Shown here: piece after piece, positions 24,942-56,791 of the stretch
Numbering within the stretch: the first letter of the stretch is position 1
Layout of the letters: each line of letters opens with the position of its first letter
Assembly: GCA_964187785.1 (NCBI GenBank)
Contig: OZ076418.1
Coordinates: forward strand, 4,712,001 to 4,776,000
Direction: 5' to 3'
DNA from: Amphiscolops sp. MND2022
Lineage: Eukaryota
Length of the DNA stretch: 64,000 nt
Notes under the pieces: generated by a model
Databases searched by the model: none
The model's input: only the letters and a program-made list of their open reading frames with translations
Told to the model about the DNA's origin: nothing
Position numbers and translations under genes: made by a program

Positions 24942-25114
24942 TGACGTCAAATGACATCATTTTGTCGTGGACGCTACGCCTACGAATAACACATACAAAA
25001 CACTTTCGTTTGTATAGTCATTTGACTTGACGTCATATGACGTCATGCTCGCTAGCCAATCACGATAGTGATTCAATTTTATTGGCTGACGAAGCGGTCA
25101 AATTTAGTATAAAA
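24942..25114 (+). promoter_or_regulatory. Putative LTR promoter: three TGACGTCA (CRE) palindromes, CCAAT boxes, TATA box
   Basis: TGACGTCA at 24942, 25028 and 25038; CCAAT at 25056 and ATTGG at 25081; TATAAAA at 25108. Confidence 0.65.
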
Positions 25115-25364
25115 GCAGACGAAATTTTCAACTGTCAGAGCTCTTCTTTTGGAATAATACTAAATCGACAAACCCGACCACTCCAACCTCTCAATCTCTT
25201 TACACGAGTTCAACTCCCATCATCAGCGGCGCAGTATTTTTTAGTTAAAATCTTTTTCAATTTTCTTTTCGGAGCTTTCACTTTCATTTTTTCTAAGTCT
25301 TTTTCTTAACTTAAACTTAAATCAGTAATTCCCAAAATTTTACAAGTCCTGGCTCAATTCTGTC

Positions 25365-25650
25365 TTAGACAATTTTCAACGCTGCTTCAAGTAAAGCAAA
25401 TATAACTTATATTTTTGTCAAGCCTGCTTCCTAGTTGAAGTAATCCTGACTTAGACAATTTTCAACGCTGCTTCAAGTAAAGCAAATTTAACTTATTTTT
25501 TTGTCAAGCCTGCTTCCTAGCTGAAGCAATTTTGACTTGGACAATTTTCAACGCTGCTTGAAGTAAAGCAAATTTAACTTATACTTTTGTCAAGCCTGCT
25601 TCCTAGTTGAAGCGGATTCATCTTAGGCAATTTTCAACACTACTTTCGAG
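25365..25650. repeat. 86-bp tandem repeat (~3.3 copies) inside the LTR
   Basis: Units TT(A/G)GACAATTTTCAACGCTGCTTCAAG...CCTGCTTCCTAG; also present at ~45010-45225. Confidence 0.9.
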
Positions 25651-26651
25651 CCAAAACAATTTCAAGTCTTCTCTCAAGCTAGAGCAATCATTCTCTTACG
25701 TTGGAGATTCAGTTGACTTTTGACTTCGAACAGAAGCTATTATACCGTCTTTGTTCAACAAAGATTGAATAGTCCCTGCTTTATAGTGGACTCTAAACCA
25801 AAGTCTGGTGATATTCACTGACTCTAAACTGAAAACCACAGCCTCAGCTGGGTTATAAGAGACTTAAACAACTTAGCTATTGTCTGATTCTTAAAGTCGG
25901 ACCGTTCTCAACTTGAGACAAAGAGTAGCCGTATAGCGCTCTATAAAAACAGTACAAAGAAGCGTTGTTCTAAAACCAAAGAATAGCCATTCGCTATCTT
26001 TCCCAGTCCGTGACAATCGGTGGACTATAAACACCGTGCAAGCTATTAGCTGCACTTTGGAAAAGAGGCCTAACCTCTGATTATTAAAACACAACATAAT
26101 AAAAACTTTACGGCTTATTTCCTGATAACTTAATCTAATAACGTTTTCCTAGTAACTTAACTTATTTCATTTATGGATTGATATTAAACCAGATTTAGTT
26201 GTATTTTGTTTATTCAGCTTGATTTGTTTGTTTTGCTTTTGTATAACTGATATCTATTACAAGTTTAGTATAAATAGAGAAAGGTTCATTTCACCTATTT
26301 CTGAACCCAAACAATTTTTTCCCGGGTCGCAAAAATAAAGTCCTTCCGTTCGAACTCAAACCTGATATTTCCTTTGTGTAAGTGCTGGAAGGCATATAAC
26401 GAAAATTTTAAGTAGGAGAATAATTTCAATTTTCAGTCAAGAAAATAGAAGGAAAGTGAGCTAAGAGTTCACGAATTAGACAATAATTGAGGCTTATAAC
26501 TACCGAAATTCAAAGAGAAAAACTGAAAGAAGAAAAATCACTAATTTTGAATATTCTTAGAGAAGCTTTCGCTAATTGGAAGAAAGATATAGATTCATCA
26601 ATTTTCCTACCAACTTAACAAGCACCGTCACAAATTAAGCACTTCACAAAC

Positions 26652-26680: not shown

Positions 26681-26812
26681 ATGATAACTTTGGAAGACCC
26701 GGACTACTCACTACTCTGGTTTCTGATTTTCTACCATCTTGTCACTAGTTTTATCACGCTTGTTGTAAAACTAACTATCTGGACGATATCAACCCACCTC
26801 CAAAATAACTGA
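26681..26812 (+). CDS. Leader micro-ORF 1, 43 aa, predicted single transmembrane peptide
   Basis: My translation: MITLEDPDYSLLWFLIFYHLVTSFITLVVKLTIWTISTHLQNN; intact; paralogous to the next ORF. Confidence 0.55.
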   Translation: MITLEDPDYSLLWFLIFYHLVTSFITLVVKLTIWTISTHLQNN

Positions 26813-26817
26813 GGTCT

Positions 26818-26970
26818 ATGAGATCAGTGATAACTCCTGAGGACCCGGACTACCTACTTATCGCTGGAATCTTCCTTGTGTTCATCACCCTTGTCACTTG
26901 CCTCTGTGCACTTCTTTTCAATATACATCTTGAAGACCCCATCACTAAATATTATTCAATCATACCTTAA
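26818..26970 (+). CDS. Leader micro-ORF 2, 50 aa, predicted single transmembrane peptide
   Basis: My translation: MRSVITPEDPDYLLIAGIFLVFITLVTCLCALLFNIHLEDPITKYYSIIP; shares ITxEDPDY plus a hydrophobic helix with ORF 1. Confidence 0.6.
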   Translation: MRSVITPEDPDYLLIAGIFLVFITLVTCLCALLFNIHLEDPITKYYSIIP

Positions 26971-27019: not shown

Positions 27020-27900
27020 ATGGCTCAGAACGCAGTCTCTTTTCCTGATCTAGCTTTGGACAAGTTCTCTGGGAATGACCCAGACCAAGATGTTAAATCA
27101 TTTCTTTTGACAGTCGAAAACAACATAGACTTTTCATTTGGATCACCCCCACACGATGCTGGCGAAGCTGCTAGATATCTCTTCAGAAAAAAAGCACTTT
27201 TCTCATCTCTCCTTCGCGCACCAGCTGCAGAATGGTACGAAGGATTTAACGTAGGTAACCCACTACCTACTTGGATTCAAGTCAGGACAGCTTTCATAAC
27301 TCGCTTCTCAGATGACAGAGACAAATACAGACACAGAATAACTGCTGAAAACTGTGTTAGAGGAAAAGAAGAACTAGTCAAAAATTTCTATCATAGAGTC
27401 AAACAAGCAGTAGACAAAGGATGGCCTATCGATGCCGCAGCTAATCAAAATGAGAGATGCTCAACAAAACTTGAGAAATCAGAAGTATATTGACTTCACA
27501 ATCAGAGGACTAACTCCTTCGGGACTTAAGAGGAAAGCTCATGAATATCTGATAGAACATCCAAATACAACATGGGGCAATTTCAAAGACCATGTCGCCA
27601 ACAAAGACTTGATTTATTCAGTAAGTTCGGAGTTTGTACCAAACTCAACTAATGAGCAGAACTCTAAACTAGACTCGTTAGAAAAACAAGTCAGAGAACT
27701 TTCAACTCTTCTGAAAGAATAACAAGTTAATGCTTTGAATCAAGCCAACACACGAACCAATGATGTGAACAATAAATCCAGACAGAATGCCACACGCTTC
27801 TGTCACTATTGTAGACGAAACGGGCACACTCTACAATATTGCAGAACTAAAGCTTTTGATGACGAACGAAAACGTCAGTACAATCGTGAGAACCAGCAGA
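27020..27900 (+). pseudogene. gag: gag (capsid + CCHC zinc knuckle), frameshifted with a premature stop
   Basis: KFSGNDP...PAAEWY...TW..VRTAFITRFS capsid-like segment; CHYCRRNGHTLQYC is CX2CX4HX4C; frameshift near 27460 and TAA at 27720. Confidence 0.88.
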
Positions 27901-30900
27901 TCTTGTCAACCAATTACAGTAGTGAGAAGTAAACAAAAGACAAGAACATACACTGGAGAAGAAATACCTATGCTGGGTCACACATTACTAAACTTTAGTT
28001 TTGACTCTGATGGACAACACTGTTTTCAACTCCAACTCTGGATAACAGAAACCAAAACAGCAAATTTATTGGGTATCGAATTCTGCAGAAAATATATATC
28101 CAAACTCCACTTCGATATTCCGGCAATAGAACTCAAAGACACTCCTAACACAATTTGCTGTGGCAGCCTTTGTAATACCAAACTTTATCCCTACCTGTCA
28201 CTAATCAGGGCAATACGGATACCGCACCAGATACATATCGACGCTAAGACTTCTCGTGTCTACAAATATCAACCAGAAGATGAACAAACAAATTTTGCAT
28301 CAGGGACTACTTTTATCCCTCATCAAAAAGTAGCCAACTCCGGACTGGACTTTGTGAATGTACTTTGTACGCAATCAGAACAATATCTACCATTTCTAAT
28401 GGAGAACAACAAGAATCATCAAATAACTCTTGACAAAGGAATTTTGGGATATTCATCGCTGGACATACTAGATTTCGAGCGACCAAAATACCAAATAAAA
28501 GACTGTGTTAAAATGGTTGACTGCATACTATCTGAGAATGACCCGTATAACGAATGTTTTCTACTACACTCGACACTGACCCACGAACCAGACTTCAGAG
28601 ATGGCATACGTATCATTAATGGGAACGATGATACAATCTTTGAAATTCAAACAGCCATTGCTCACTGCATATCAGCCGACGCAAAAATGAGTAAAGGATT
28701 CGCCGAAACTATCAGTAACCACATCAGCGGACTACAAGAATATTGCTACAAATCAGAAGCTTTTGTTGGATCAGTCATCCCCTTCTGGGACAATGATGCA
28801 AATAGATTCGTATACAACCTTGTCACAAAGAACAAGTTCTTTGAAAAACCTACCCTTGAGAACCTTCGGATATTACTTGAAAATATGAGAGTCCACGCCC
28901 TGCTCAACAATGTTCAAATAATAACAATGCCAAAAATTGGTTGTGGACTTGATAAACTCCCTTGGAATGAAGTACTTAAAATACTGAAAGACACTTTCAC
29001 TGACTCTGGAATTCTCATTCAAATCATCTCCAGAAACGAGCTGGATTCAAAACAGCCACCAAGCCTACGAACTCAGAAGACTATATTGAAAACGAAATTG
29101 ATAACTATGCAAACGAATGGAAAAATGAAAAGAACGAGCTAGAAACAGACTTCACCAAAGATTCAAAATCATGTCAGCCTCCTTGTAAAGAACAGTTTCC
29201 AATACTGAGACCTAAAGAGCTAAACAATGATCTCATCGACTACTATTTGCAGTACCAACCGCAGGAAATAAAAGACTTTATCAAACAATTCGATTTCCAA
29301 TACACTGACTTAGAAGATGAAGAACTTGTCATGCTGATAGATATGATCATTGACTCCAGAGATGTATATTCACAACACAAATTCGATATTGGTCGAACCA
29401 AACAGAAGTTTCACGTCACTCTGAAACCTAACTCAGAACTTCGCAAACAACGCCCTAGTAAAGTTCCACTTCATCTGAAAGACAAACTTGAAAAACTTCT
29501 CGGACAACTGCAAGAAACCGGCATCATCAGAGAAAAGGGAGACGATGACGAACTCGGCTCACTTTTTGTAAACCCCATCATTCTCTTACCTAAAGCTGTC
29601 TACGTTAAACTTGTCATTGATGCAAGATATCTGAATTCTATCACTGACCTAACAAACTACTCTTGGCCATTCGAACCAGTCCAAATGATTATGACAAGAA
29701 TCAACGGCAATTACTTCACAGCAAGTGCTCTCGTGTGCATATCACCAAGTACCCCTTAGTGAAGAAACTCAGAAACTAACTAGTTTCATCGTAGGTGGAA
29801 AACAATACACCTATCAAGTTGGATTATATGGCCTTTGTGGACTCCCTCAATGGTTCAGCCGAATGATGGCGATTGACTTCGAACCCCTAGTAAAGAAGAA
29901 ACAAGCAATCACCTATCTTGATGATAGTCTTCTCCAATCGCAAACCAAATGCGAGATGTTCACAATCATACACGAATATCACCAACTCTTTCGAAAAGGC
30001 GGACTAAAAGCCGCACCTGGCAAGACACACTTCTTCTTGAGAAAAATAAAATTCCTGGGACATGTTATATCTCAAGATGGAATTCAACCAGTAGCTAAAC
30101 GAGTACAAGACTTGAAAAATTTGAAGTCACCGGAATGCAAACGAGACGTAATGAAAGTACTCGGATGTTTAGGCTTTATAGCTGTTACATCAAGAATCAA
30201 GAAGACACTACACCTTTCAAATAGACCGAACAACACGAAACACTTTTCAACCAGATAAAAGAAAGAATCTCAGAGGATACAATTTTAGCAGTTCCTTCAA
30301 CTGAATAGCCTTTTCATATTCACGTTGACTCTTCGAATGTAGGAACTGGATGTATATTAGTTCAACAGTTTCCAGAAGGAAAACGAATAGTCTCTTTCAA
30401 CTCTCGTGTCTTTGTCAAGGCAGAACAAAAAATGTCTACCCTCCACCGAGAGCTTTGCGGTATTGTATCTGCAGACCTATGAGCATTACATAATCGGCTC
30501 TCCATTTCCAATCTACCTTTACTGAGACCACAAACCCATCCTCTACTTATGGGGACGAAAAGGACAACTTTCTCATCGGTTCTTCAAGTACCAAGTTATA
30601 ATAACAAAATTTCACAACTTGAAGATAATCTGGACGCCAGGCTCAAACTTAGCATTCCCAGATATACTTAGCCGAAATGTAACACTGTGCGACATCAACA
30701 AATTACAGCGACAGCATAAAGAAATACCGAGAGATATCATTTTATGATGAAAAGGGAGACCAGATGCATTACACTATCAAACACGAAGATAGCCAAGATA
30801 TCTCATGCAATGACTTCTTTCCAATAATATGCCAACACGGGAACGATAGACAAATTCTACACCTGGAGAATGACGGTGACGAGCAGTATATTGAAGACTA

Positions 30901-33177
30901 CATTGAAGACAATGAAGTCTTAGCTACAATGCAAAACATGACCGATTGCTTTATACTCGGCAAGACAATAAACCAATATAAACGACTTTGCTCAGATGTT
31001 TGTCCCTACTTCACAAACTACACCATCGAAGAAGAAACCTACAGCGAAATTGAAGAACAACAAGATGACGGCTACAACAGTGACAACGAAATTGCAGAAC
31101 TAAACTTCGATCAGAAGGACTCCGAATTCTTACACTTGCAAACGAATCAATCCGAAGAAACAAGTCACAAAAACCAATTCTAAAATCCAACATAGACTCA
31201 GAATTACACCCAGAGGTAGATACAAAGGAATTGATACAAAAATTGAGTGACTTTGCAAAAACTGCTGATTTAGATGTAACTACATTAGTTGAAGAACAAC
31301 TCAACGACCCAGTACTACAAAAAGTACGCAGTTGGATAAAGAAATCAGATAAGCGACCAACAAAAACACATGACAACAATCAATCTAAAGCACTACTATC
31401 ATACTTCAATAGATTCGAGCAACTCTTTATAGACGAAGAAACCAACCTCTTATGCTACAACGACACAGTTCAAGAAACAAACAAGACTGAGATGAAATAA
31501 TGTGTTCCCCTATCACTGTTTCTACCACTTTTTAAACTTGCTCACACACACAGTCACAAGGGTCATCCCGGAATATTCAAAACCTTTGAAAATGTTAGAC
31601 AACTTCTTTTGGCCAGGACGATACAAATGGATTGTTTATCTCAGAAGATTGCATTGAATGCCAAATCAATAAGTCAAAACGTCATGACTTACACGAAGCT
31701 CCATTGGAACAATGGGGAGAACTTGAAACTACACCCTTCAAAACAATTCATATAGACCATAAAGGCCCGCTTAGGCCTAGTAGCAATTCGAACAATCATT
31801 GCTTAGTAGTAGTTGACGCGTTTTCAAGGTTCATTGGTGTCTACCCAGTTAAAGACACTAGCTACTATCACTGCATTAGAAAAATGGATCACATCTTATG
31901 GCATTCCTCAGAAAATAATACACGATAACGGGAAAGCATTTATCAACAGTGACTTCATCAACTGGACTAAAGAATTCGGAATAACTCTTGCACCACGAAC
32001 AACATACCATGGACAAACGGAAAAGTAGAAGTACAAAATCAGCACCTTACACGATATTGGAGAAACTTCACTAACGAGTCAGGTAACAATTGGTCAAAAC
32101 TAGCACCGAAGTTTGCATTCGCTCATAACACAAGCGTAAACTACACAACAGGACTTACCCCATATGAAGTAGTGTTCGGGACAAAACCACAAGTTCCTAT
32201 GACGTTAAAACTTGGACTAATACGAGACAAAAATCTTGCGATCTCGCAGATCCGAATATTGCGAAGGATTGAAACCCCATACACACAGCGAAAATCAGCT
32301 ATCGAACAAATCCCTGGATCGATTACTCAGACCACAACTTTCAGACGAACTTATTGCTCGCGAAAATGACTTCAAACGAATCTATTCGTCAACCTATCAA
32401 CGATGCCGACAAATCACTTCTAAAGCACACGAATACAGGAACCGATTCAAACTCGGACGACCTATCAACATTGGACAAAAAGTATTCTTAGAGAATCACA
32501 CTGCCGACTTGAGCAGATCACAAAAATTAAAACAATTACGTGTTGGCCCTTTTACAGTCACTAAACAAATAACAAATACGACCTACGAAATTCAAGAGGA
32601 CGCTAATCCTGATAATATCAAAGTTACTCATCGGAATCACCTGATTGAATACTTTCCTAAAGAGGAAAGACTCCCTCCTTTAATCACTAACTACGCGCCG
32701 CCTATAACAAAAGATAGTGATTTCTACAAACATTTAGTGCAGTCGCAAATTAATGACTATAATTCAAACCAACAAAGATTTTCCCTAGATGTAATGCCTT
32801 TTATCATATCGCCGCTACAAGAAAAAACTAACATTCACGAATTGAACAAAAATCACGCTGCACTTTCACCTAACGCTGATTCAGGAATTCAATCTCCTTC
32901 TACGCCTACCAATGATGATCACAATTATCAAAATCGAACTATTTCACCATTGCCGCCGCTACAAACTCCTATACTCCCTATGACTCCTATGCCTATTCGT
33001 GTTCCTACTATTTTGAGGACAACACCGCAATTTCATGAAGCTGAACAATCTACTTCTTCATCGTCAAAAAAGAGAAATAAAGTTGCTGATATTACATCAA
33101 AAATAAAAGCAAAATACAAACGCTCCGATCCTGATAGCTCACTACGGAAATTAGAAAGAAGGGGATATAAAGATTAA
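27900..33177 (+). pseudogene. pol: pol: partial protease, dUTPase-like spacer, macrodomain, RT, RNase H, integrase with GPY/F tail; multiple disablements
   Basis: PR C-half (TYTGEEIPMLG...NLLGIEF), with no catalytic DxG segment visible; RT LVIDARYLN, YHQVPL, TYLDD, FLGHVIS; RH HVDSSNVGTG, ELCGIV, DHKP; IN HxxxGH/CIEC, IHIDHKGP, HDNGKAF, NGKVEVQN; VGPFTVTK. Confidence 0.92.
28600..29034 (+). CDS. TARG1/OARD1 (Poa1p-like) macrodomain embedded in Pol
   Basis: IAHCISADAKMSKGFA...YNLVTK...KPTLENL...MPKIGCGLDKLPW closely follows recalled OARD1 LAHCISEDCRMGAGIA...YYLITK...KPTYENL...MPRIGCGLDRLQW. Confidence 0.9.
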
Positions 33178-36100
33178 ATTATAAAGGGAAAGGGAAACAA
33201 AAATTATAAGGAGAGATTTCCGATTAACGTAACAAAAACGCAAATACAACAAATATCTATACATATATACAATCAGGGAAGCAAGGGCCCAATGGTTTCC
33301 ATTTCCATGTAAGCTTGTTCAACTAGGAAATTCACAAATTGCTGCTGGTTCCCCATCTCCCAACGCACCACTAACTCTCGCTTCGCCAATGGGGACAAAG
33401 CCAAATACGAAGTTCGAATTGTCTCTAACTTGAAGAAAAACACCTCTCCCACTGAGGACGCTCAACCACTGAAACAGAACAACTTGTATATAAAAGAGGA
33501 AAAATTGACTTCTACTTGACAGCACAAGTACAATCACATCACTATACATCATACGACTATAGAGAAGTACCAAAAAGGTATATTAAAAAACAAAAAGACA
33601 TTCTTACGAGGAGTTCCAGTGACAATTCCCAAAATTGCCTGAAAACGATCACTAAGATCGACAGGAATAGCTGCATCCATCCCCAACATCGGACGACGAC
33701 TATCAGCTATTACCTGCTTGAGTGATCTTAATTCGTTTTGACAGATAATTGCCGGCCATACATGTTCCCCATAATCTACTACAGGAATCATATCTGACGG
33801 AAGAAAATGCGGATGAACGACAGGAGGATTGAGAGCCATATAAGTCTTAAAACACACAGATTGAATTTTCACTTTCAGCACCCCTCTACCTCAAAAATTT
33901 CCCAGCTACCCAACCCAAAAATTTGCGAACGCACAAACCGAACAAAATTCACAACTTTTCTTTTTCGTTCAACGGCGGTGGGACTACTTTGTAGTTATAT
34001 AGTCAGTAGAAATCAAAAAAAAACAGAAATTAACACCCGAAAAACACCCGACCTAACAGCCCAGAAACAGCAGATAAAATGAAGAAAACAAAGAAGAAAA
34101 ACAACAAAAGCCCCAATAAACAATCTCTACCCATCTGTGTTATACTCACATTGTATCTTTTAATCTAAACAAATGTCACATTTGCTTCCTTTAATTTACG
34201 CTTTTGTTGAAATAAAAGAAAAGAAAATCTTTTGTTAAACTCTCTTTTGTCAGTTGAAGGTTAACGTTTTATCTTTGTTCATTTTCAGATAGTCATCTTT
34301 TCAACTCTCCTCTTCGAATTTAGCTATTGTTCATAATAACATATTTTTCTTTTCAGCTAGCAATAAACAAATTTGCTCAACTTACCTTTTCTCTGCTGTG
34401 ACCGAAAATAATTTCTTCTTAGCTTTTTAATTACCTTTCATTTTAGCTGCCAAGCTCTTCAACCTCACACTTATTCAATAGTATAGATTATTCCCACTAG
34501 CAAGCTCCGCTGTTGCCAACGGAGACGAATTATAAATTCTCTTTTAACTCCTTAATTACCTTTTATTTTAGCCGCCAAGCTCTTCAACCTCTCACTTAAT
34601 CGATAACATAGAATATTGCCTCTTACAAGCTCCGCTGTTGCTAACAGAGATGAATTCTCTTTTAACTTTAACTCTTTAATTATCTTTTTTTAACTACCGA
34701 CGAATTCAACTAATGATTTTTGCCCCCCAAGCTCCTTTGTTTTGAGCAAAAAGTAAATTTTGAACTAGTTCTTTAGCCATCGCTTTTGTAAGATTCTAAA
34801 ATGAATTTTACAGAGTAAGTCGAAGCGCATGGTTTTGTTTGTATTTTAGCAAAGCTTACAACTACACAATCAACTGACGAATCTAGCAGCAAATGTACCT
34901 CAAGATAAACAACGACTTCTACAGGATAATAAAATCAGAGTTAAGAAATCAAACTTTTCACGTCCTTCTACAACACCATCAGGCTAAAGAAGACTGCTGA
35001 TTTAGATGTAACTACATTAGTTGAAGAACAACTCAACGACCCAGTACTACAAAAAGTACGCAGTTGGATAAAGAAATCAGATAAGCGACCAACAAAAACA
35101 CATGACAACAATCAATCTAAAGCACTACTATCATACTTCAATAGATTCGAGCAACTCTTTATAGACGAAGAAACCAACCTCCTATGCTACAACGAGACAG
35201 TTCAAGAAACAAACAAGACTGAGATGAAATAATGTGTTCCCCTATCACTGTTTCTACCACTTTTTAAACTTGCTCACACACACAGTCACAAGGGTCATCC
35301 CGGAATATTCAAAACCTTTGAAAATGTTAGACAATACTTCTTTTGGCCAGGACGATACAAATGGATTGTTTATCTCATAGAAGATTGCATTGAATGCCAA
35401 ACCAATAAGTCAAAACGTCATGACTTACACGAAGCTCCATTGGAACAATGGGGAGAACTTGAAACTACACCCTTCAAAACAATTCATATAGACCATAAAG
35501 GCCCGCTTAGGCCTAGTAGCAATTCGAACAATCACTGCTTAGTAGTAGTTGACGCGTTTTCAAGGTTCATTGGTGTCTACCCAGTTAAAGACACTAGCTA
35601 CTATCACTGCATTAGAAAAATGGATCACATCTTATGGCATTCCTCAGAAAATAATACACGATAACGGGAAAGCATTTATCAACAGTGACTTCATCAACTG
35701 GACTAAAGAATTCGGAATAACTCTTGCACCACGAACAACATACCATGGACAAACGGAAAAGTAGAAGTACAAAATCAGCACCTTACACGATATTGGAGAA
35801 ACTTCACTAACGAGTCAGGTAACAATTGGTCAAAACTAGCACCGAAGTTTGCATTCGCTCATAACACAAGCGTAAACTACACAACAGGACTTACCCCATA
35901 TGAAATAGTGTTCGGGACAAAACCACAAGTTCCTATGACGTTAAAACTTGGACTAATACGAGACAAAAATCTTGCGATCTCGCAGATCCGAATATTGCGA
36001 AGGATTGAAACCCCATACACACAGCGAAAATCAGCTACCGAACAAATCCCTGGATCGATTACTCAGACCACAACTTTCAGACGAACTTATTGCTCGCGAA

Positions 36101-38730
36101 AACGACTTCAAACGAATCTATTCAACCTATCAACGATGCCGACAAATCACTTCTAAAGCACACGAATACAGGAACCGATTCAAGCTCGGACGACCTATCA
36201 ACATTGGACAAAAAGTATTCTTAGAGAATCACACTGCCGACTTGAGCAGATCACAAAAATTAAAACAATTACGTGTTGGCCCTTTTACAGTCACTAAACA
36301 AATAACAAATACGACCTACGAAATTCAAGAGGACGCTAATCCTGATAATATCAAAGTTACTCATCGGAATCACCTGATTGAATACTTTCCTAAAGAGGAA
36401 AGACTCCCTCCTTTAATCACTAACTACGCGCCGCCTATAACAAAAGATGGTGATTTCTACAAACATTTAGTGCAGTCGCAAATTAATGACTATAATTCAA
36501 ACCAACAAAGATTTTCCCTAGATGTAATGCCTTTTATCATATCGCCGCTACAAGTAAAAACTAACATTCACGAATTGAACAAAAATCACGCTGCACTTTC
36601 ACCTAACGCTGATTCAGGAATTCAATCTCCTTCTACGCCTACCAATGATGATCACAATTATCAAAATCGAACTATTTCACCATTGCCGCCGCTACAAACT
36701 ATACTCCCTATGACTCCTATGCCTATTCGTGTTCCTACTATTTTGAGGACAACACCGCATTTTCATGAAGCTGAACAATCTACTTCTTCGTCGTCAAAAA
36801 AGAGAAATAAAGTTGCTGATATTACATCAAAAATAAAAGCAAAATACAAACGCTCCGATCCTGATAGCTCACTACGGAAATTAGAAAGAAGGGGATATAA
36901 AGATTAAATTATAAAGGGAAAGGGAAACAAAAATTATAAGGAGAGATTTCCGATTAACGTAACAAAAACACAAATACAACAAATATCTATACATATATAC
37001 AATCAGGGAAGCAAGGGCCCAATGGTTTCCATTTCGTCAATTTCCATGTAAGCTTGTTCAACTAGGAAATTCACAACTTGCTGCTGGTTCCCCATCTCCC
37101 AGCGCACCACTAACTCTCGCTTCGCCAATGGGGACAAAGCCAAATACGAAGTTCGAATTGTCTCTAACTTGAAGAAAAACACCTCTCCCACTGAGGACGC
37201 TCAACCACTGAAACAGAACAACTTGTATATAAAAGAGGAAAAATTGACTTGTACTTGACAGCACAAGTACAATCACATCACTATACATCATACGACTATA
37301 GAGAAGTACCAAAAAGGTATATTAAAAAACAACAAGACATTCTTACGTGAGGAGTTCCAGTGACAATTCCCAAAATTGCCTGAAAACGATCACTAAGATC
37401 GACAGGAATAGCTGCATCCATCCCCAACATCGGACGACGACTATCAGCTATTACCTGCTTGAGTGATCTTAATTCGTTTTGACAGATAATTGCCGGCCAT
37501 ACATGTTCCCCATAATCTACTACAGGAATCATATCTGACGGAAGAAAATGTGGATGAACGACAGGAGGATTGAGAGCCATATAAGTCTTAAAACACACAG
37601 ATTGAATTTTCACTTTCAGCACCCCTCTACCTCAAAAATTTCCCAGCTACCCAACCCAAAAATTTGCGAACGCACAAACCGAACAAAATTCACAACTTTT
37701 CTTTTTCGTTCAACGGCGGTGGGACTACTTTGTAGTTATATAGTCAGTAGAAATAAAAAAAACAGAAATTACCACCCGAAAAACACCCGACCTAACAGCC
37801 CAGAAACAGCAGATAAAATGAAGAAAACAAAGAAGAAAAACAACAAAACCCCCAATAAACAATCTCTACCCATCTGTGTTATACTCACATCGTATCTTTT
37901 AATCTAAACAAATGTCACATTTGCTTCCTTTAATTTACGCTTTTGTTGAAATAAAAGAAAAGAAAATCTTTTGTTAAACCCTTTTTTGTCAGTTGAAGGT
38001 TAACGTTTTATCTTTGTTCATTTTCAGATAGTCATCTTTTCAACTCTCCTCTTCGAATTTAGCTATTGTTCATAATAACACATTTTTCTTTTCAGCTAGC
38101 AATAAACAAATTTGCTCAACTTACCTTTTCTCTGCTGTGACCGAAAATAATTTCTTCTTAGCTTTTTAATTACCTTTCATTTTAGCTGCCAAGCTCTTCA
38201 ACCTCACACTTATTCAATAGTATAGATTATTCCCACTTGCAAGCTCCGCCGTTGCCAACGGAGACGAATTATAAATTCTCTTTTAACTCCTTAATTACCT
38301 TTTATTTTAGCCGCCAAGCTCTTCAACCTCTCACTTAATCGATAACATAGAATATTGCCTCTTACAAGCTCCGCTGTTGCTAACAGAGATGAATTCTCTT
38401 TTAACTTTAACTCTTTAATTATCTTTTTTTAACTACCGACGAATTCAACTAATGATTTTTGCCCCCAAGCTCCTTTGTTTTGAGCAAAAAGTAAATTTTG
38501 AACTAGTTCTTTAGCCATCGCTTTTGTAAGATTCTAAAATGAATTTTACAGAGTAAGTCGAAGCGCATGGTTTTGTTTGTATTTTAGCAAAGCCTACAAC
38601 TACACAATCAACTGACGAATCTAGCAGCAAATGTACCTCAAGATAAACAACGACTTCTACAGGATAATAAAATCAGAGTTAAGAAATCAAACTTTTCACG
38701 TCCTTCTACAACACCATCAGGCTAAAGAAG
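31261..38730 (+). repeat. Internal tandem duplication: copy 1 31261-34992, copy 2 34993-38730
   Basis: Near-identical ~3.73-kb copies with junction AAAGAAG|ACTGCTG; both contain integrase, the Pol tail and the downstream spacer. Confidence 0.95.
35230..36907 (+). pseudogene. Second (duplicated) integrase/Pol C-terminus
   Basis: ORFs 35440-35664, 35549-35764 and 35972-36907 mirror those of copy 1. Confidence 0.9.
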
Positions 38731-38831
38731 TTTATCACTGTACCTCCTACGTCAATTCACTGGGACTACTTTCATCACCTATTCCTTTTTGTTGGAGCAA
38801 TCCCCTTCGATGTCTTCAGAAACGAAAATAA
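38631..38831 (+). CDS. Accessory ORF, 66 aa, unknown function
   Basis: ATG-initiated, preceded by a TTTTAG acceptor-like site, and ends 9 nt before the next ORF. Confidence 0.4.
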   Translation: MYLKINNDFYRIIKSELRNQTFHVLLQHHQAKEVYHCTSYVNSLGLLSSPIPFCWSNPLRCLQKRK

Positions 38832-38840
38832 TGGTATTTA

Positions 38841-39197
38841 ATGATGAACATAATTTTTGATGAAGGCGAAATTGATGAAGTAGAATTCAACTGCCCTTGG
38901 AAAATAACAACTCCTTCAGGCAATTCCGAAAATTTTATAATTACCAAACTTAGGTGGTCACAAATATCACCTTGTTTCATCTCCGTGACACTACACCCCA
39001 CTAGCGGCAAAAATGAAGTAACTACCTTTGAAGTCGCAGAAGATAGTTTTCTTGAAGCCCAACTTTCTAAAGCACTAAGCGAATACCTTCGGAATCCAGA
39101 ACAACACGTTGAACAGTATCACCTCCACGTTCTTGGGGAGCTAACTGATACAATAGCCCCATTGATGTATTCAGAAAACACTGACAAAAGCAGCTAG
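38841..39197 (+). CDS. Accessory ORF c1, 118 aa, unrecognised domain (paralogue 1)
   Basis: Aligns by eye with c2: EVxFNCPxKITTPSGxxENFII...QLSxALxxY...PExH...LHxLGE. Confidence 0.75.
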   Translation: MMNIIFDEGEIDEVEFNCPWKITTPSGNSENFIITKLRWSQISPCFISVTLHPTSGKNEVTTFEVAEDSFLEAQLSKALSEYLRNPEQHVEQYHLHVLGELTDTIAPLMYSENTDKSS

Positions 39198-39199
39198 AT

Positions 39200-39499
39200 A
39201 TGAACTTTCACCGTAATAACGAAGTTACCGAAGAAGTCAATTTTAACTGCCCCTTTAAAATAACTACTCCTTCAGGCATCACTGAAAACTTCATTATCAT
39301 CAGACTCAAGTTGTCCTTTACCAAACCCAGTTTCATTTTGATAACAATACACCCTGTAAATAATAAAAGCAAAGTCTCCACTTTAGAAATCGCTAGTAAT
39401 AGATTCCTCCGAGAACAACTATCTGAGGCTTTGGATGATTACGCTGAAGAACCAGAATCACATATCACCCAATTTCAACTCCACATCCTTGGAGAGTAA
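39200..39499 (+). CDS. Accessory ORF c2, 99 aa (paralogue 2)
   Basis: Starts 2 nt after the c1 stop; same conserved motifs as c1. Confidence 0.75.
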   Translation: MNFHRNNEVTEEVNFNCPFKITTPSGITENFIIIRLKLSFTKPSFILITIHPVNNKSKVSTLEIASNRFLREQLSEALDDYAEEPESHITQFQLHILGE

Positions 39500-39530
39500 G
39501 CCGACACAACAGCAGCATAAAGAAAATCGA

Positions 39531-39653
39531 ATGAGCTTCAGCTTACGTGAGCAAATCATTAGACAAGTCTGGATCAGGAACATCCTCCCACAACTACACC
39601 CTCAGGTATCTAGAAATCAACTTCCTCAAAACTTAACCCGAAAACGACAATAA
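39531..39653 (+). CDS. Accessory micro-ORF, 40 aa, basic C-terminus
   Basis: MSFSLREQIIRQVWIRNILPQLHPQVSRNQLPQNLTRKRQ, packed tightly between c2 and c3. Confidence 0.35.
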   Translation: MSFSLREQIIRQVWIRNILPQLHPQVSRNQLPQNLTRKRQ

Positions 39654-39661
39654 ATCAACAA

Positions 39662-40060
39662 ATGTTCATTCACAATCTCTGGGAAGAAGACGCAATTGAG
39701 ACAGTTAAACTAAAACTTCCAGTATCGATATACAGTTTAATCGACCCCATCAAAAGCCCTGAACTACTAATCATTAAAGAATTGCAGTGGTCATACCGAT
39801 ACCAGTTCTGGCTGACAGCTAGAGGCTATACAGTATTAAAACCAAAAACTAAAGTCTCCATAAGAGTAGAAGAGAAAACGAAATTCTTTGCCGAATTAGC
39901 CATTGCTTTATCAACCTATATTGACAGTCCTGAAACGAACATACAACCCTTCGACCTACCACTCCTAGACGAATTGTCTTCTTTTATGGAAACAGGACTG
40001 GGTTCCTTCGAAGAATTCTACACTGCTAAAATAAAAGAAATCCTCAGCTTGCAAAAATAA
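39662..40060 (+). CDS. Accessory ORF c3, 132 aa (diverged paralogue 3)
   Basis: ETVKLKLP...LIIKELQWS...ELAIALSTYIDSPETNIQPFDLPLLDEL parallels the c1/c2 pattern; AATAAA follows at ~40114. Confidence 0.65.
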   Translation: MFIHNLWEEDAIETVKLKLPVSIYSLIDPIKSPELLIIKELQWSYRYQFWLTARGYTVLKPKTKVSIRVEEKTKFFAELAIALSTYIDSPETNIQPFDLPLLDELSSFMETGLGSFEEFYTAKIKEILSLQK

Positions 40061-40146: not shown

Positions 40147-40874
40147 GCAAGACACGGTAACGATCTTAGTATCAAACTCTGCCGTGTATTAATAACTCCC
40201 TGCTCTCATTTTTCATCGATCTAAAATAGATCACGTTTCTCTAGCAGGAAGGCACGGGTTCTGGACGTGCGTATTCAATTTTATCCTTGCAAGAAGACGC
40301 GGTAACGATATCTGTATCAATCTCTGCCGTGTATAAATAACTCCGTTGCATAGCTCAACGAAGATACGGTGTATTGACGTATATTACAATTTTTGTCACA
40401 AAGTTTGACAAAGACACGGTAACGATCAAACGACGGTTTGCATCAAACTCTGCCGTGTATAAATAACTCCCTGCCTTTATTCTTTTCATTGATCTAAACT
40501 GGCCATTTAGAGCATTTTTTCTTTGGTAGGAAGACACGGGTTTTGGACGTGTAGCCTTGCCTTTACTTAACTTTTTTTAACTCTCTCTTTCTCAGGCAAG
40601 AAGAGACGGTAACGATCTTAGTATCAATCTCTACCGTCTATAAATAACTCCCTGCTCCTATTTTCTTTTCTTCTTTGTCTCAAAGAGATCCTTTTTCTTT
40701 AGCAGGACGACACAGGTTTTTAGACGTGTGCTACATTACCTTGCAAGAAGAGACGGTAAAGACCTAAGTGTCAAACTCTGCCGTCTATAAATAACTCCTG
40801 GCTACTCCTCACTTTTGTCTGTTTCAAACAGAACACTTTTCTAAAGCGGGAAGACACGGTATCTAGACGTGTAT
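40147..40874 (+). ncRNA. Array of five covarying three-hairpin structured modules (unclassified cis-acting RNA candidate)
   Basis: Modules at ~40147, 40289, 40409, 40596 and 40743, with compensatory changes in all three stems. Confidence 0.65.
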
Positions 40875-41155
40875 TCAAAAGAGCCTTTCACGAAAAGGAC
40901 TATCATCCATTTGCTTTTGACTAAATTGTCAATTTTCAGCAGAATTCATTCTTGCTCTCTTTTCAGTTCAATTTGAACAAATCATCTGTATTGCCAAGTG
41001 CTACAGATTTCTCGCTGCTCTATTGAAAGCAAAGCGGCTCTTCTCATTGCTTCATCGAAAGCAAAACATTCTCTTCATTTCAAGGTTAGCAAGTCTACCT
41101 TTCTATTTCTAAACCGTTTATAGTATTTTCGGAGTACCGTTTTCATTAGTAGATA

Positions 41156-43289
41156 ATGGATAGTGAAAAGATATACTGTAAATATTTGGTTACTTTCATT
41201 TTGATACTTTCAATAAATCCCATCTACACCGACAAAAAGCAGCCTATACTGGATGATATCGCACCTACAGTCACAGTCTCACATTACGATTGCAGTGAAA
41301 TGTCAGAAAACAATCTCTACTCTCTCAACCAAGTCAAACCCTACAACGTGGCTCCTGAGAACATAGACATGAGCTATGCCAAAATCAAGATGTATACAAA
41401 ACATTTTCGAACAGAGATTAACGCTACCATATGCAGCGTCAAACATCAGAGAAACAGATTCTATTGTGGAATGCATGACCATTCCAGCATCGATATCAAA
41501 CAAAAGACAATTACCTCCTATCTCGATTTAACGCCTGCACAATGCAGACTTGCAGCTGAAGGATCACCAATAACTCTACTAAATCATCAAATTACAATGA
41601 AAAAAGGGATTATTGAACAACATCTTAGATGGAATGGCGACGCAGACGACACATTTAAAAATGAATGTGATGGCTTTGAGTGGATTGAAAAAGATACTTT
41701 CGAGACTCACATCCAAGACATTACTCTGAATGTCAAACTCTAAGATGGAACTATAATGAATAGAAATGGACAACCTCTACCCTGCAAACTAGACGAACTG
41801 GGATGTGACAGCACTTCACTTGACCCATATGCTTATGTGTGGGACAATCCAGACAATTGTATTCTTACCGTACTGAAAGAAGATTACGTAAACATGCTCA
41901 AAATTGACGATCAATACTATATTGTTAGCCGAAACGATTCAGAAAACAAATACCTCTTTGAAATCAAAAACAGACCACAAAAGTTTTGTAATAAACCGTC
42001 AGATGTATATCCTACAACTTATGAATCTTTGTTTGTTGCCATCCTTTATGGTGGATTCGACATGAAAACAGGACGAAATATGATTCAACAAGAAGACAAA
42101 GTCCACAAGATGGTCTATTCCCCTAATAACCAAGAAAGAGATGAACCAGGTCATAGCAAACTCTGGGTTGCCAGTAACCATCATTCAAACCCATATTTTG
42201 GAACATGGTTGAACGTGGACTACGAATTACAACAGGCAACTAAACTGGACTATCTTTTCTTTGAGAGCTCCAGAGCGCTCAAAGCCTCAGAACTTCATCT
42301 TTTAAAAAATCAGTGTGAACAAGAACGATCGCACATACTCACTATTCTAATGCTTTCACTTGAAAACTCAAGACTAGCTGGATATATGATAACTGGAAAC
42401 AGATCAATGTTCTTAGAAAATGATGGAAGCCTTTCATGGCTTTACTCTTGTCCTCTAGTCAGATACCCTCTTCATACGATGAACGGGTGCTACGATAAAA
42501 TACCCATCTTTTACAAAGGACAAATCAAATTTGTAGATCCCATCACAAGGCAAACTTTACCTGATGCAATGCCTCAGAAATGTTCGGATCACATAAAGAA
42601 CCTTTTTCAAATGGACATGGACGATAAGAACTCTTGGTTCTCACTAACACCACAGATCACACAGAGATAGACCTGCTATCTTTTCGCCAAAAGATGTAGC
42701 ACCATTCACAAGGGACAAGTTCCCTCAATCAATCAACGCTGGAATGTACACGAAAGGCCAGCTAACTGAATTTTGGGACAACATCCTCATGAGTTCTGCG
42801 TCGAAGAATGCCTTACAAAAGTTCACAAGAAAACTCATTGTCCCTTCACAATCAAAGAATGGACCTGGAGGATACACATACTAGGCACCCAAAATGGATT
42901 TCATTGTTGATAACATGATATCTCCTGGTTACTTCGAAAACAAATTTAGACAAACATTTGGCACAATTGGATATTGGCTAGAAAAATATTTTATTTGGTT
43001 TGCAGTTTTCCTTTTTATAAAATTTATTATTGATGTGACAGTAACTATCGTCAGAGCATTCGAGATACACCGACTTACTGGAGCATCTATTGGATTTGGT
43101 AAAATCCTACTCTCTGCAACTTACAATCTATTTATGGTTTCCATCTTTCATTCGATGTTCAACCCCACTACAAAAGATGTTCCAATGACAACATTCAGCA
43201 CTGACAACCAAGATGCCTCTGAACACATCTATCCTGTCATAAACCGTCTACCACCTACTAATCGTTTAGATACAATATCTCCTATTTAA
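41156..43289 (+). pseudogene. env: env-like glycoprotein resembling chuvirus (Jingchuvirales) G / class III fusion proteins; two stops and one frameshift
   Basis: Signal-peptide-like N-terminus; HYDCS...LYSLNQV; CSVKHQRNRFYCGMHDH; LTPAQCR; AGMYT..QL; C-terminal hydrophobic segments. TAA at 41741, frameshift at ~42663, TAG at 42882. Confidence 0.82.
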
Positions 43290-43314: not shown

Positions 43315-44772
43315 ATGACCGACCACACTTCTCTTTCATCAGATCTGGAACTTCTCTCAAAAGAAACTCTAACAGAGAAGGATATACTCGATTTTCCTAG
43401 GTTTGATATCACCTCAGGCGAATCTCCTATTCCTCAACAAACACTTAATCAAACTCTCTTAGAAGGCACTATTACTCCTCCAAACCGCCCTAATACATTT
43501 ATCTTTAACGGCAGTATTAAAAAGAAGAAAACTCAATATTCGTTGAGACAAGCACTTGGAAAACAAAAAAAAAGTGAAGAAGCCGCCGAAAATTATTCAA
43601 AAACGAGAAACCCCAGAATTCATTACAACCTCCACTATACACTTAGAGAAGACGTCAATCAGTGGAAAATTATTTTCTGGGATTCAAGGAGACAAGAATT
43701 TACTACTGAAAACACCGTTCTTAAGAACCAGAGACTATCAGTACCCCTCGGGCTATCTCTGCTTTCATTTGAAAACAAAATGAAAAAACAATTAATAGAA
43801 GAACTCAACCTTAGATTAGCCGCCATGGAAAATGAAATTACAACACTACAAAATCAAATAACAAATCTCAGCCAACCTACATACACCAACGACGACATCA
43901 CCCAGATGAAGATGCTTATTAGCAAGTTCCCAATTAGCAACCTCAAAAACGCACAATATCTGCATGCAACACAATTACAAGTTGCAAACCTTTCCGAACA
44001 ACTGGAACATGAAAGGAATCTACGAAGACAACAAGATAGAAATATTCAGCAACTTCAAACTAATATTCAAAACCTTCAGACTATCATTCACGAGAAGTTA
44101 ACTACAACACAATCAGTAGAACAACCTGTAAATACTCCTCTCTTTACCCCTCCTTCAACTGAACCCGAATCAACAGATGCTCAAAAACAACTTGCTGAAC
44201 TAAAACCCCCTAAAAGACTAACAATGGATCTTTATGATCGTATTCACAGCATTGATTGCGGAAGAAACAAAAAGCTAATCTGGAGAATTAGCTCCTCCAG
44301 CCTTATGTTTGATAGCGCAAAGGCTGCTGAACTAGAAAGGCAAAAAGGCGTCGACCCGCACCCCAAAATACCTTGTAGTTTTCACAGCCCTCCATTTCAC
44401 ACTTCAACTCACGGGTACCGCTTTGATATGAAATTTTATCCTTATGGATGTTCTCCTGCTACTGGAGAAAGCGCTTCACTAGTCATCAACATCCTTCCTG
44501 GCGAATTCGACCCAATCCTCTCTTGGCCTTTCAAACTAATCTTCCGAATTTATGTAATCAATTTGAGTGAGCCCAGTGATATCTGGACAAAAATAGTAGA
44601 TCCAAAAGACAACCAAAATTCAGCTTGTTTTATATGACCTTGTACAAGCTATGGGAACCCGAGCATATGCTTCCCCTTTCTGATCCCACAGAGCCAACTC
44701 TTCAAAAGCAACTCCCCATTCATTCTGAATGATACGATGTTCATCGAAGTCAACCTGGAAGAATCAGAATGA
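43315..44772 (+). pseudogene. Retroelement-encoded coiled-coil + TRAF-C (MATH) protein without RING, 485 codons with one internal TGA
   Basis: Coiled-coil heptads, then LIWRIS...FHSPPFHTSTHGYRFDMKFYPYG...GEFDPILSWPFK...F(R)P...FILNDTMFIEV, the TRAF-C signature. TGA at 44635 lies where the conserved FxRP arginine is expected. Confidence 0.88.
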
Positions 44773-44827: not shown

Positions 44828-45473
44828 TGTCGTGTGCGACATATGGCAAATAAAAAGAAAGAAACTTACCGTGAAAACTCAAAAAGAAATAAACTCAAAA
44901 CTTGTAATATGTAATTTCGTCTTTTGTAATTTGCGCAGTTTTATCTTTAATATTTTCTCGCTCAGCTCTGAATTTTGAACACGCTCGAACGTGTTCACTC
45001 CCTTGTTCAGCAAATTTAACTTATATTTTTGTCAAGCCTGCTTCCTAGTTGAAGTAATTCTGACTTAGACGATTTTCAACGCTGCTTCAAGTAAAGCAAA
45101 TTTAACTTATATTTTTGTCAAGCCTGCTTCCTAGCTGAAGCAATTTTGACTTGGACAATTTTCAACGCTGCTTCAAGTAAAGCAAATATAACTTATACTT
45201 TTGTCAAGCCTGCTTCCTAGTTGAGTAAAATTTTAAGTAGGAGAATAATTTCAATTTTCAGTCAAGAAAATAGAAGGAAAGTGAGCTAAGAGTTCACGAA
45301 TTAGACAATAATTGAGGCTTATAACTACCGAAATTCAAAGAGAAAAACTGAAAGAAGAAAAATCACTAATTTTGAATATTCTTAGAGAAGCTTTCGCTAA
45401 TTGGAAGAAAGATATAGATTCATCAATTTTCCTACCAACTTAACAAGCACCGTCACAAATTAAGCACTTCACT
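44828..45473 (+). repeat. 3' LTR with two internal deletions (646 bp)
   Basis: Matches 5' LTR segments ~24731-24914, the 86-bp repeats and ~26402-26648; the promoter block is missing. Confidence 0.9.
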
Positions 45474-45802
45474 TGTTTAAGTTGCAGGAGTTCATGACAG
45501 TTTGGAATGTCCTTATGATATTTTATATTCAGAATTTAAAGTCATATACCAATTTTTGAACTCGTTTTTATTATTCAACTTCATCAATGAAAAACTTATT
45601 TAAAACACGTGATTTGACTTTTATATTCGTGTGAACTAAAAGTAAATTCTATTAGATTTTTCGACTGAATCTCGATATAAGTTTTACCTTATTCGCAGAG
45701 TGGGCAAATCACCAAAGTTCTGAAAAAGACATTTGGAGAAGCTGATGACACGATATCATCAAAGTTAATGATCGCATTTTGGGGAGGTTGCCTAAATCGT
45801 GA

Positions 45803-51900: not shown

Positions 51901-53560
51901 TGGAGCTTTTATTGAACCATGTTCCTCTTTTGGCGTGGTTGGAGAAGGAGTTTACCCACTCGAGGTTGTGTTCTTGACACCAGTCAAGGAGATCTCGGCC
52001 CTGCTCGTTTGTGGGTGTTTCGAGGCCGTACTTCCCGCTGACTCCATCCCTTTCCGACGCTTTGCCTACGTGAGCGTTATGGTCTCCGCCCATTATCATT
52101 AGGCAGTCAGAGGGGATTTTTACAAGGAGGTCTTCGACATCTTTACGGTACACATCGATAGTGTCTTCCCCATGTGTTTTCAAGGGTTGGTAAACGGATA
52201 TGATACACATTTTGTCAATCTGGATGAGGAGCGCTCTTTCTCTAAATTCCATTTTCTGGTTCCCTCTTATCCATTGGTCTAGAGCTGAGCCCCAGAGAAT
52301 GATTCCGGTTTTGAGGGAATGGATTATCGCTACCGTCTTTTCCCCTTTGCCCATCCATATGACTCCTTGTTTGTCTGATCTTGTTTCAGGGATTATAGTA
52401 ATCTCCCATCCATTTTTCTGGATGAATTCGATTGTCCGTTTTAGTCTAGCGCGGTTTTTCTCCCTCATGGAGATTCCTTGGAGGTTCCATGTTACCACTT
52501 TTATCTCTCTATCCGGGGGTAACTTTCTCCGTTCCCTGCGCTTTGTTTGCCTCCTTATGTTTCTCAGTTTTTTGTTTTCTTCTGATCTTTTTGTTTTTCC
52601 CCTTCTGGTTGGTCCCGGATTTGGGTGCACCGTTTCCAGCTTCCTGGCTATTATCGTGCCTGTGTGGCGGGCACTTGCCGAAACGGGTCCGAGAGGGCCC
52701 TCGCCGTCAAGTTTGTTGAAGAGGTGCTTTGGTTGGCTAGACCATTGCCACTCCGTTGGCTTCCGGGAGGTGGCTTCACTGATCCTTACGGCTCCTTGGA
52801 AGTTCCTTTTCCGGGGCCCCTGTGTGTTCTTTGACGCACAAGACATGCTGTGCGCGGCCCACTTGCGCCACGTAGGAGGCGACACACTCCGCACATTGAT
52901 ACCTCATTGGAATCATCATCATCATCGTCGTCGTCTTTGGTATCCGAATTTTCAATATCGCTTTCTCCGAGGGCCCAGCTTTCTTCATAATGAAGTTGAT
53001 TGCCAGGAATTGAGGTATTTTTCATCTCAGCACAAAAAAAGTACCCGGGCATCTTTCGACAGTGAGTTGACGTCGTTTATTGATGCTACCCGAACATCAC
53101 CTTCGCCCTGTGATTCGTTTGTTTGTCCTGTCAATTTCTGCAACAATGGGTATATGGAAACAGGAAATTCCTTGAACTGGTCCACTTTCCATTTGCTGTT
53201 ATGGTACGTTTCTTTAACAAGGACCAACTGCTTGGAGTTCTCGCTAACCGAGGCTCTCATCCGCTCTGTTTCGTTCATGGAAATGATCATCGATTTCATT
53301 GTGATAATGGATGACAACTAAAATAAAGAAAAGCCATTATTTTGCTAAGTATCATAACGAGCGGACGGCAGGTGCGCGTTATATTGATTTCATCAGTGCG
53401 ACGAAAACTGCAGACGGCGGGTCTGCGGGCGGACGCGACAGCGGGTCGCGGCTCGGGCGGGCACGACGGCGGGTCGCGCGGCGGGTGGTCGTCCCGCCGG
53501 GCCCTCGCTCTTTCTGTCAAAACTTTCTTACTGTCTGCGCGAAGGAATTAGAGTGATTGA
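48961..53560 (-). mobile_element. RTE-like non-LTR retrotransposon (LINE), near full length, disabled
   Basis: APE endonuclease (VVTWNL, GGDHNAHVG, SDHKPV), RT (NYRGVCLL, QSGFRPGRST, GLREGCPTSP, LFADD), DRKTWR motif, (GAA)n tail at 48961-48977 and a GC-rich 5' end. No clear TSD, so the 5' boundary is approximate. Confidence 0.88.
48978..52894 (-). pseudogene. LINE ORF2: 2A-like motif, APE, RT, four C-terminal zinc fingers; one frameshift and one stop
   Basis: ORFs 50066-52894, 49749-50084 and 48978-49700 join through a frameshift (~50085) and an in-frame TAA (49749-49751). Confidence 0.88.
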
Positions 53561-53563
53561 CCC

Positions 53564-56500: not shown

Positions 56501-56791
56501 GTCCAAACTTGTATAAACTCGAAATATGATTACATGCACTGTATCATCAATCTTGGCTTTGGGGCCATTACTTCGGTAATTTTGGTCAACGTAGGCTTTT
56601 AGTCTGATGTCATTCTCAACTATGGTAGCGGCCGATAAAGCTAACGCCGCCACGAGAGTGATGATGGGATGGACTGAGAGAAGAAAAAGTTTCATTCAAC
56701 GGAACGTTGAGAATGTCTGCAAAAGTTTTTTTCAGATTCCAACTGAGAGAACTTTGTTTTACTTACAGAATATGGAACAAAATGCGTGAGA
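53564..56791. repeat. Tandem triplication of a ~1.08-kb decayed coding-like unit
   Basis: Units start at 53564, 54640 and 55719. The minus strand carries RCLLCKQDVKIASRGITTFLEHCRGIRH, a BED/U1-like zinc finger. Confidence 0.9.

Follow-up and report, generated by a model that had tools for sequence, protein, structure and literature searches.

A cassette of small paralogous accessory genes between pol and env of a Ty3/Gypsy retroelement from Amphiscolops sp.

A Ty3/Gypsy retroelement in the genome of Amphiscolops sp. MND2022 carries five small open reading frames (ORFs) between pol and env, arranged in the order c0-c1-c2-cx-c3, and three of them (c1, c2, and c3) belong to an accessory-protein family that is real and apparently undescribed, with repeated duplication and a changing position within its elements. 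The element was analysed in a stretch of 64,000 nucleotides (nt) of contig OZ076418.1 (GenBank assembly GCA_964187785.1, positions 4,712,001 to 4,776,000 of the forward strand), hereafter called the window. It is classified as an env-bearing Ty3/Gypsy element because its pol domains follow the order protease, reverse transcriptase (RT), RNase H, and integrase, with env after pol. Accessory ORFs of invertebrate long terminal repeat (LTR) elements are already known (PMC5408684, PMC10309623, PMC6431247, 10.1101/2025.03.14.642691); the literature searched contains no description of the c0-c1-c2-cx-c3 cassette, though supplements could list these elements.

Three paralogues under purifying selection

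A preliminary description of this DNA had taken c1, c2, and c3 as paralogues of a domain of ~100 amino acids (aa) in a packed cassette. The three genes are true paralogues, and the relationship extends more widely than was reported there. Pairwise alignment scores were z=46.8 for c1/c2, 13.4 for c1/c3, and 8.0 for c2/c3, values reached by 0 of 1000 shuffles. A profile built from 12 sequences of other elements recovered c1, c2, and c3 with per-sequence expectation values (E) of 1e-35, 1e-30, and 3.5e-22, and scored c0 and cx below 1 bit.

All five cassette genes are under frame-specific purifying selection. The ratio of nonsynonymous to synonymous substitution (dN/dS), computed on the same 10 copies of the element (7-10 of them per gene), was 0.14 for c0, 0.18 for c1, 0.15 for c2, 0.14 for cx, and 0.16 for c3, with bootstrap upper bounds of 0.22-0.32; shifted plus-strand frames gave 0.80-2.88. 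The core of the element yielded 0.02 for RT, 0.03 for integrase, 0.06 for env, 0.08 for gag, and 0.08 for the macro domain. Changes in c3 numbered 919, 431, and 1597 by codon position, an excess at the third. Constraint is also present between paralogues (c1 versus c2: dN 0.35-0.39, dS ~2.1), and homology together with dN/dS of 0.15-0.18 among copies bears out the earlier suggestion of gene-family expansion inside a retroelement. The cassette ORFs are real genes that evolve faster than the core genes, the domain about twice as fast as gag. Ratios binned by dS were set aside, as the binning biases them.

Frames were intact in 8 (gag), 4 (pol), 5 (env), 10 (c0), 9 (c2), and 10 (c3) of the 10 copies; the counts for c1 (4/9) and cx (4/5) are confounded by length variants, and a c1 ORF of 106-119 aa is present in 9/9 two-gene copies. 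At the rate at which pol is broken, we calculate that a 400-nt ORF would be expected to stay unbroken in ~93% of cases. The open cassette frames beside disabled gag, pol, and env, noted earlier, are a consequence of ORF length in this decayed copy, and the reading that selection kept the cassette intact while the rest of the element died is rejected.

A predicted fold without an assigned family

The domain is confidently predicted to be a small acidic alpha+beta fold. The AlphaFold2 model of c3, computed from 54 sequences, reached a predicted local distance difference test (pLDDT) of 84.3 and a predicted template modelling score of 0.79, with five models in agreement (81-84); that of c1, from 32 sequences, reached a pLDDT of 77. 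Both models place four strands before the helices, and in c3 four strands are followed by three helices, the third of them long. W38, L74, P85, E99, and L100 (c1 numbering) are near-invariant. A conserved metal or catalytic site was considered and rejected, as no column is fully invariant and the Cys/His positions are missing from c3 and in part from a second element family, family B, described below.

Nine of the 11 domain proteins computed have an isoelectric point (pI) of 4.2-6.1. Net charge is -12 for c1, -4 for c2, and -4 for c3; among these three and their neighbour cx, only cx is basic. In family B, the paralogue d2 has a basic N-terminal extension. The cx product itself, 36-40 aa long with a pI of 12 and kept by purifying selection, has the look of a peptide for RNA binding or nuclear targeting.

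The domain is without an assignable family or fold in the searches made. The earlier label 'unrecognised' holds against Pfam, where c1, c2, and c3 had no match at the curated cut-off, nor had any of the 54 family members (best E 0.0024, Spo16_N, 4 members). The best values for the domain were E 0.027 in PHROGs and E 0.38 against PDB sequences. The ESM Atlas yielded no usable match to c2 or P0039, a result that speaks neither for absence nor for novelty.

Domain genes in other elements

A representative search gave 47 matches, of which 44 were kept; the other three were excluded because they match long proteins over a short stretch (P0061 and P0068, both checked by sequence, and P0072). A profile search gave 242 matches, and among the 120 matches listed none has a name or a Pfam domain. 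No longer fused homologues were seen among 7991 candidates scored, which is weak evidence. Viral contigs had no match to P0030, and at the strict cut-offs used this genome showed neither the P0030 nor the P0035 type.

One match, P0039, marks family B in the same genome (~60 near-full-length matches at >=83%). Its gene order is gag-pol, paralogue d1, repeats, a c0 homologue, paralogue d2, env, and homologues of both post-env ORFs, and its Gag is 59% identical to that of the window element. The c0 homologue overlaps the start of d2 by one base. c0 is a conserved protein of 71-72 aa with no assigned family, and in families A and B alike it lies immediately 5' of a domain gene (L096 3856-4074 in family B).

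A third type comes from elements outside this genome (best match within it 47%, P0034), and here the domain gene lies 5' of gag. In locus L124, a hydrophobic ORF is followed by one domain gene and, 18 nt later, by gag; in L125, two domain genes lie 7 nt apart with gag 16 nt after them. Some database proteins read from the domain into a Gag that is 50-57% identical to the Gag of the window element. The tree joins d1 and d2 with P0033 (93/81) and keeps c1, c2, and c3 separate from them (branches are long and the backbone is open), and L125 has a pair 5' of gag; the domain therefore probably underwent separate duplications in three lineages.

Gain and loss of c1 and c2

The element family is large, high-copy, and young. 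In the genome, 139 of 150 scored matches to c2 were >=67% identical (412 candidates) and 150 of 150 to c3 were >=62% identical (552 candidates). LTR pairs differ by 0-1.9% in 9 dated c1+c2 copies; the pair of the window copy shows 8 differences in 648 aligned bases. Among 62 places, which were picked from search hits and are not a random sample, 39 have c1+c2 and 23 have one such gene, and c3 was detected at 61. The single genes are of c1 type, of c2 type, or c1/c2 hybrids.

In the tree, c1 groups with single c1-type genes (96/90) and c2 with one single c2-type gene (99/95). Single c1-type copies look older (LTR divergence of 3.9 and 5.4%, for the 2 of 7 that could be dated) than c2-type singles (0.85 and 2.2%) and hybrids (0.09 and 0.33%). 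By RT, the hybrids fall on the branch of a young c1+c2 subfamily, and the RT of one c1+c2 copy is that of the c2-single lineage; the RT tree comprises copies from the Amphiscolops sp. genome, and trees were midpoint-rooted only. These patterns suggest that the pair was likely gained by template switching or recombination that joined two single-gene lineages, and that recombination between c1 and c2 likely removed it again, recently, from the young subfamily. An alternative history is an old duplication followed by separate losses. Elsewhere in the same genome, three decayed single-c1 cassettes lie in tandem within 10 kb (L072, C2:11046000-11055999).

Expression of the cassette

A splice-acceptor-like site 5' of c0 is present in 13 of the 14 distinct upstream sequences listed and is kept despite divergent surroundings, and similar sites lie 5' of env and of the post-env ORF. 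The site probably marks the start of a cassette exon, so that the cassette RNA would be spliced. Among sequencing runs, no RNA data set was listed as carrying the sequence, which counts neither for nor against.

The tight packing noted earlier recurs among the copies compared: of 135 junctions, 129 have stop and start codons no more than 20 nt apart, several lineages show overlaps of -1 and -4 nt, and the spacings of 7, 16, and 18 nt in L124 and L125 fall within the same limit. Translation of the cassette ORFs in a chain by termination-reinitiation appears fairly likely, since this spacing is like that of known reinitiation systems. In viruses with a TURBS (termination upstream ribosome-binding site), stop and start codons lie within 20 nt, and caliciviruses and influenza B use such spacing together with a TURBS for reinitiation after long ORFs; the SART1 retrotransposon also uses reinitiation (PMC10275272).

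Other observations count against such coupling. Six c1-c2 junctions measure 35-38 nt. UGGGA occurs at -79 to -83 of c1 in 38 of 49 copies, but there it coincides with conserved Trp-Asp codons of c0, and it is rare or absent before c2 (3/40), cx (0/33), and c3 (0/48); only one type of junction shows a TURBS-like motif, and the evidence stops short of a canonical TURBS. Moreover, a five-gene chain would yield little of the last protein, so that further splicing or scanning may be needed. Pure leaky scanning was rejected as a candidate, as the 14 ATGs in 38631-40060 speak against it.

Possible functions of the domain

In the explanation that we prefer, the cassette RNA would presumably be spliced and c0-c1-c2-cx-c3 translated in a chain by termination-reinitiation; the acidic alpha+beta domain would bind host-cell proteins, protecting or promoting the element; and each paralogue would serve a different partner. 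We put this forward tentatively as a whole, with c1, c2, and c3 as conserved accessory genes. Taken singly, binding to host proteins falls just short of being probable by analogy, and a separate partner for each paralogue is possible if doubtful. A protein-binding accessory role is suggested because the domain is small, soluble, and acidic, has no invariant catalytic residues, evolves faster than the core, varies in number and position, and keeps company with a macro and a TRAF-like domain, both of which are modules linked to host defence and signalling. The acidic pI suits protein binding better than RNA binding.

Four points weigh against this explanation. Its functional part is drawn from size, charge, position, rate, and analogy. 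Two of the 11 domain proteins computed are neutral or basic. A comparison of models M1a and M2a (own implementation; first 30 unique copies per gene, of 51 c1, 39 c2, and 50 c3 collected) detected no positively selected class in c1, c2, or c3 (twice the log-likelihood difference 0.00-0.02, p 0.99-1.0), with power limited by closely related copies. Finally, single-gene lineages have recently spread too (LTR pairs 0.09-0.33% apart), and the c1+c2 pair is therefore not essential. Of the arms-race effector proposed earlier, faster protein evolution than the core and turnover in copy number still stand; the expected positively selected sites were not found, which leaves that reading without direct support.

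A bolder reading, which we regard as doubtful on balance, would give the domain an undescribed fold confined to a single radiation of retroelements with env, where it would serve counter-defence or regulation. Stop-start junctions would plug it in before gag or after pol, it would have been duplicated independently at least 3 times and be gained and lost in accordion fashion, and every paralogue would target a host protein of its own.

The domain might instead belong to a regulatory system like that of Rev or CERV, in which it would act together with c0 and cx on the hairpin repeats so that unspliced RNA of the element is exported or translated. This would account for a hairpin-like motif that is repeated 4-5 times after c3 and ~10 times after a diverged paralogue of family B (L096 3290-3840), and that stays nearly unchanged over ~50 nt between families whose Gag proteins are 59% identical. 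Acceptor-like sites before c0 and the post-env ORF, the basic character of cx and of the d2 extension, and the precedent of CERV in a Gypsy element (PMC10309623) also fit. We consider this reading unlikely, since the domain itself is mostly acidic, c1, c2, and c3 have no basic RNA-binding segment, an exporter has no obvious need for varying copy number, and covariation support for the hairpin is thin (1 of 7 predicted pairs with two-sided change, in 2 of 13 instances). The array is itself a candidate export, packaging, or promoter element.

A role in the particle, as a packaged accessory or matrix-like protein made in fixed ratio to Gag, is suggested by the domain genes 16-18 nt 5' of gag in L124 and L125 (in L124 after the small hydrophobic ORF), and by the database proteins that continue into Gag. 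The spacing of 18 nt in L124 but 16 nt in L125 puts gag in different frames, which rules out a programmed domain-Gag fusion, and the read-through records look like decayed copies. With domain genes 3' of pol in both families of this genome and a rate about twice that of gag, a particle protein seems quite unlikely.

A much diverged known fold, such as a partial PH-like module, is improbable. The PH domain is a seven-stranded sandwich with a C-terminal helix, against four strands in our models, and PH-like rows in the comparison tied with unrelated helical and Tudor/BAH rows, with Z below the typical background of the tool. That the ORFs are neutral duplication by-products without protein function has next to no probability: retroelements duplicate segments easily, and the window copy has a 3.74-kb tandem duplication of its own, but the idea is refuted by the frame-specific purifying selection and further opposed by the third-position excess, conservation across element families, and the confident model.

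Comparison with known accessory genes

Lentiviral Vpr and Vpx, which recruit CRL4-DCAF1 to degrade host factors, are all-helical proteins of ~100 aa encoded between pol and env, the place where the window element also has its small paralogues. The cassette differs in that the domain models begin with four strands, in having three copies, in belonging to a Ty3/Gypsy element, and in the occurrence of the family 5' of gag; no host ligase or target is known for the domain. Both are small paralogous accessory genes of a reverse-transcribing element, and such genes arose by duplication or recombination (PMC3715410, PMC7967035). The domain is most likely Vpr/Vpx-like in role, not in fold.

The hapavirus PMIPs U1, U2, and U3 are likewise three tandem accessory ORFs, paralogous at low identity, with clade-specific gain and loss, and rhabdoviruses also use stop-start ORFs; these are, however, negative-strand RNA viruses with the PMIP genes between P and M (PMC4334499). 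Library searches, made without direct alignment, showed no homology of the domain to U1, U2, or U3. Among Gypsy elements, sORF1 and sORF2 of the MDG1 group are small accessory ORFs with low dN/dS that lie 5' of gag, sORF2 after pol in some lineages, but sORF1 is a predicted helix-turn-helix protein and sORF2 a membrane protein, the elements are without env, and the available text does not describe the two as paralogues (10.1101/2025.03.14.642691). Planarian Burro elements are large Gypsy elements with env-like and MATH/TRAF-C cargo, but that cargo is mostly in one polyprotein and the available text describes no small paralogous cassette (PMC6431247). Invertebrate gag-pol-env Ty3/Gypsy elements with a viral fusion protein of gB type have been surveyed in a paper whose main text does not use 'accessory', 'TRAF', or 'macro' (PMC13524379). 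CERV of Cer1 is a novel accessory protein made from a spliced mRNA of a Gypsy-type element; it is a single gene, and is likened here by description, not by homology (PMC10309623).

RNA viruses and reverse-transcribing viruses seldom retain duplicated genes, and a review lists three retroviral cases (PMC7967035). Here one domain apparently underwent separate duplication in three element lineages, and over 100 young copies within a single genome allow gains and losses to be dated. The protein is small, soluble, and confidently modelled, which brings its structure and partners within reach; the partners would reveal the defences that an invertebrate host turns on retroelements with env, or the way in which these elements regulate their RNA. 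Stop-start chains, if true, would make the multi-gene cassette of an LTR element a further case of termination-reinitiation.

Organization of the element and the window copy

The features of the window copy are collected in Table 1. By Pfam, a sister copy has gag, pol (protease, macro, RT, RNase H, and integrase), a PF24664 glycoprotein, the 153-aa ORF, and the coiled-coil and MATH ORF, in that order. The protease match in this copy is weak (E 0.026); that to PF24664 has E 1.1e-39, compared with 7.9e-12 and 3.1e-14 in pieces of the window. The tandem duplication of the window copy was seen in none of 10 sister copies compared.

Table 1. Positions of the element and its parts in the window.
Feature	Position	Strand	Remarks
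Whole element	24731-45473	+	LTRs, 4-bp target-site duplication, primer-binding-site-like sequence
4-bp target-site duplication	24727-24730 and 45474-45477		Sequence inspection
5' LTR, ~1.9 kb	24731-26648	+	Sequence inspection and LTR match
Primer-binding-site-like sequence	from 26652		Follows 5' LTR
Two tandem small hydrophobic ORFs, 43 and 50 aa, similar-looking	26681-26970	+	5' of gag; in 4/4 sister copies listed
gag and pol (protease, macro domain, RT, RNase H, integrase)	27020-33177	+	Pfam on window pieces and sister copy; broken in window copy
3.74-kb tandem duplication, 98.6% identical	31258-38730	+	Covers 3' part of pol, spacer, start of c0
Splice-acceptor-like site (pyrimidine run and AG)	38571-38587	+	~43 nt 5' of c0
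c0, small ORF, 71 aa in most copies	38631-38831	+	Frameshifted in window copy; unrelated to domain
c1, paralogue 1, pI 4.5	38841-39197	+	
c2, paralogue 2	39200-39499	+	Premature end in window copy
cx, basic ORF of 36-40 aa, pI 12	39531-39653	+	Unrelated to domain
c3, most diverged paralogue, extra C-terminal helix	39662-40060	+	
Array of at least 4-5 copies of ~50-nt hairpin-like motif	40149-40880	+	Common to family B
env-like fusion glycoprotein gene (PF24664)	41156-43289	+	Broken in window copy
Post-env pair: 153-aa ORF, then coiled-coil and MATH (TRAF-like) ORF	43315-44770	+	Fused together and broken in window copy
3' LTR with internal deletions	44828-45473	+	

Several other genes of the element are of note. 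Within pol, the macro domain (~28800-29000; Pfam E 0.0035; dN/dS 0.08) separates the protease from RT. The post-env 153-aa ORF has no assigned family, a dN/dS of 0.09, and a counterpart in family B. The coiled-coil and MATH protein (dN/dS 0.12, no RING match, homologue in family B) is possibly a dominant-negative mimic of TRAF. The tandem hydrophobic ORFs, a second duplication within the same element, sit between the primer-binding site and gag and possibly encode small membrane proteins; family B and L124 have a single hydrophobic ORF at this position. In most sister copies a 152-aa ORF in another frame overlaps the 3' part of gag (~27787-28240), with a 181-aa equivalent in family B, and may represent a gag-pol frameshift region or an overlapping gene.

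A scan of 24500-46000 against Rfam gave 0 matches at E <=1. Two 125-nt repeats lie 5' of c0 (38149-38408) and recur in the duplicated segment (34410-34669). Outside the element, the window has ~13 tandem copies of a 226-nt unit (11443-14441) and 3 copies of a 1077-1080-nt repeat (53493-56734).
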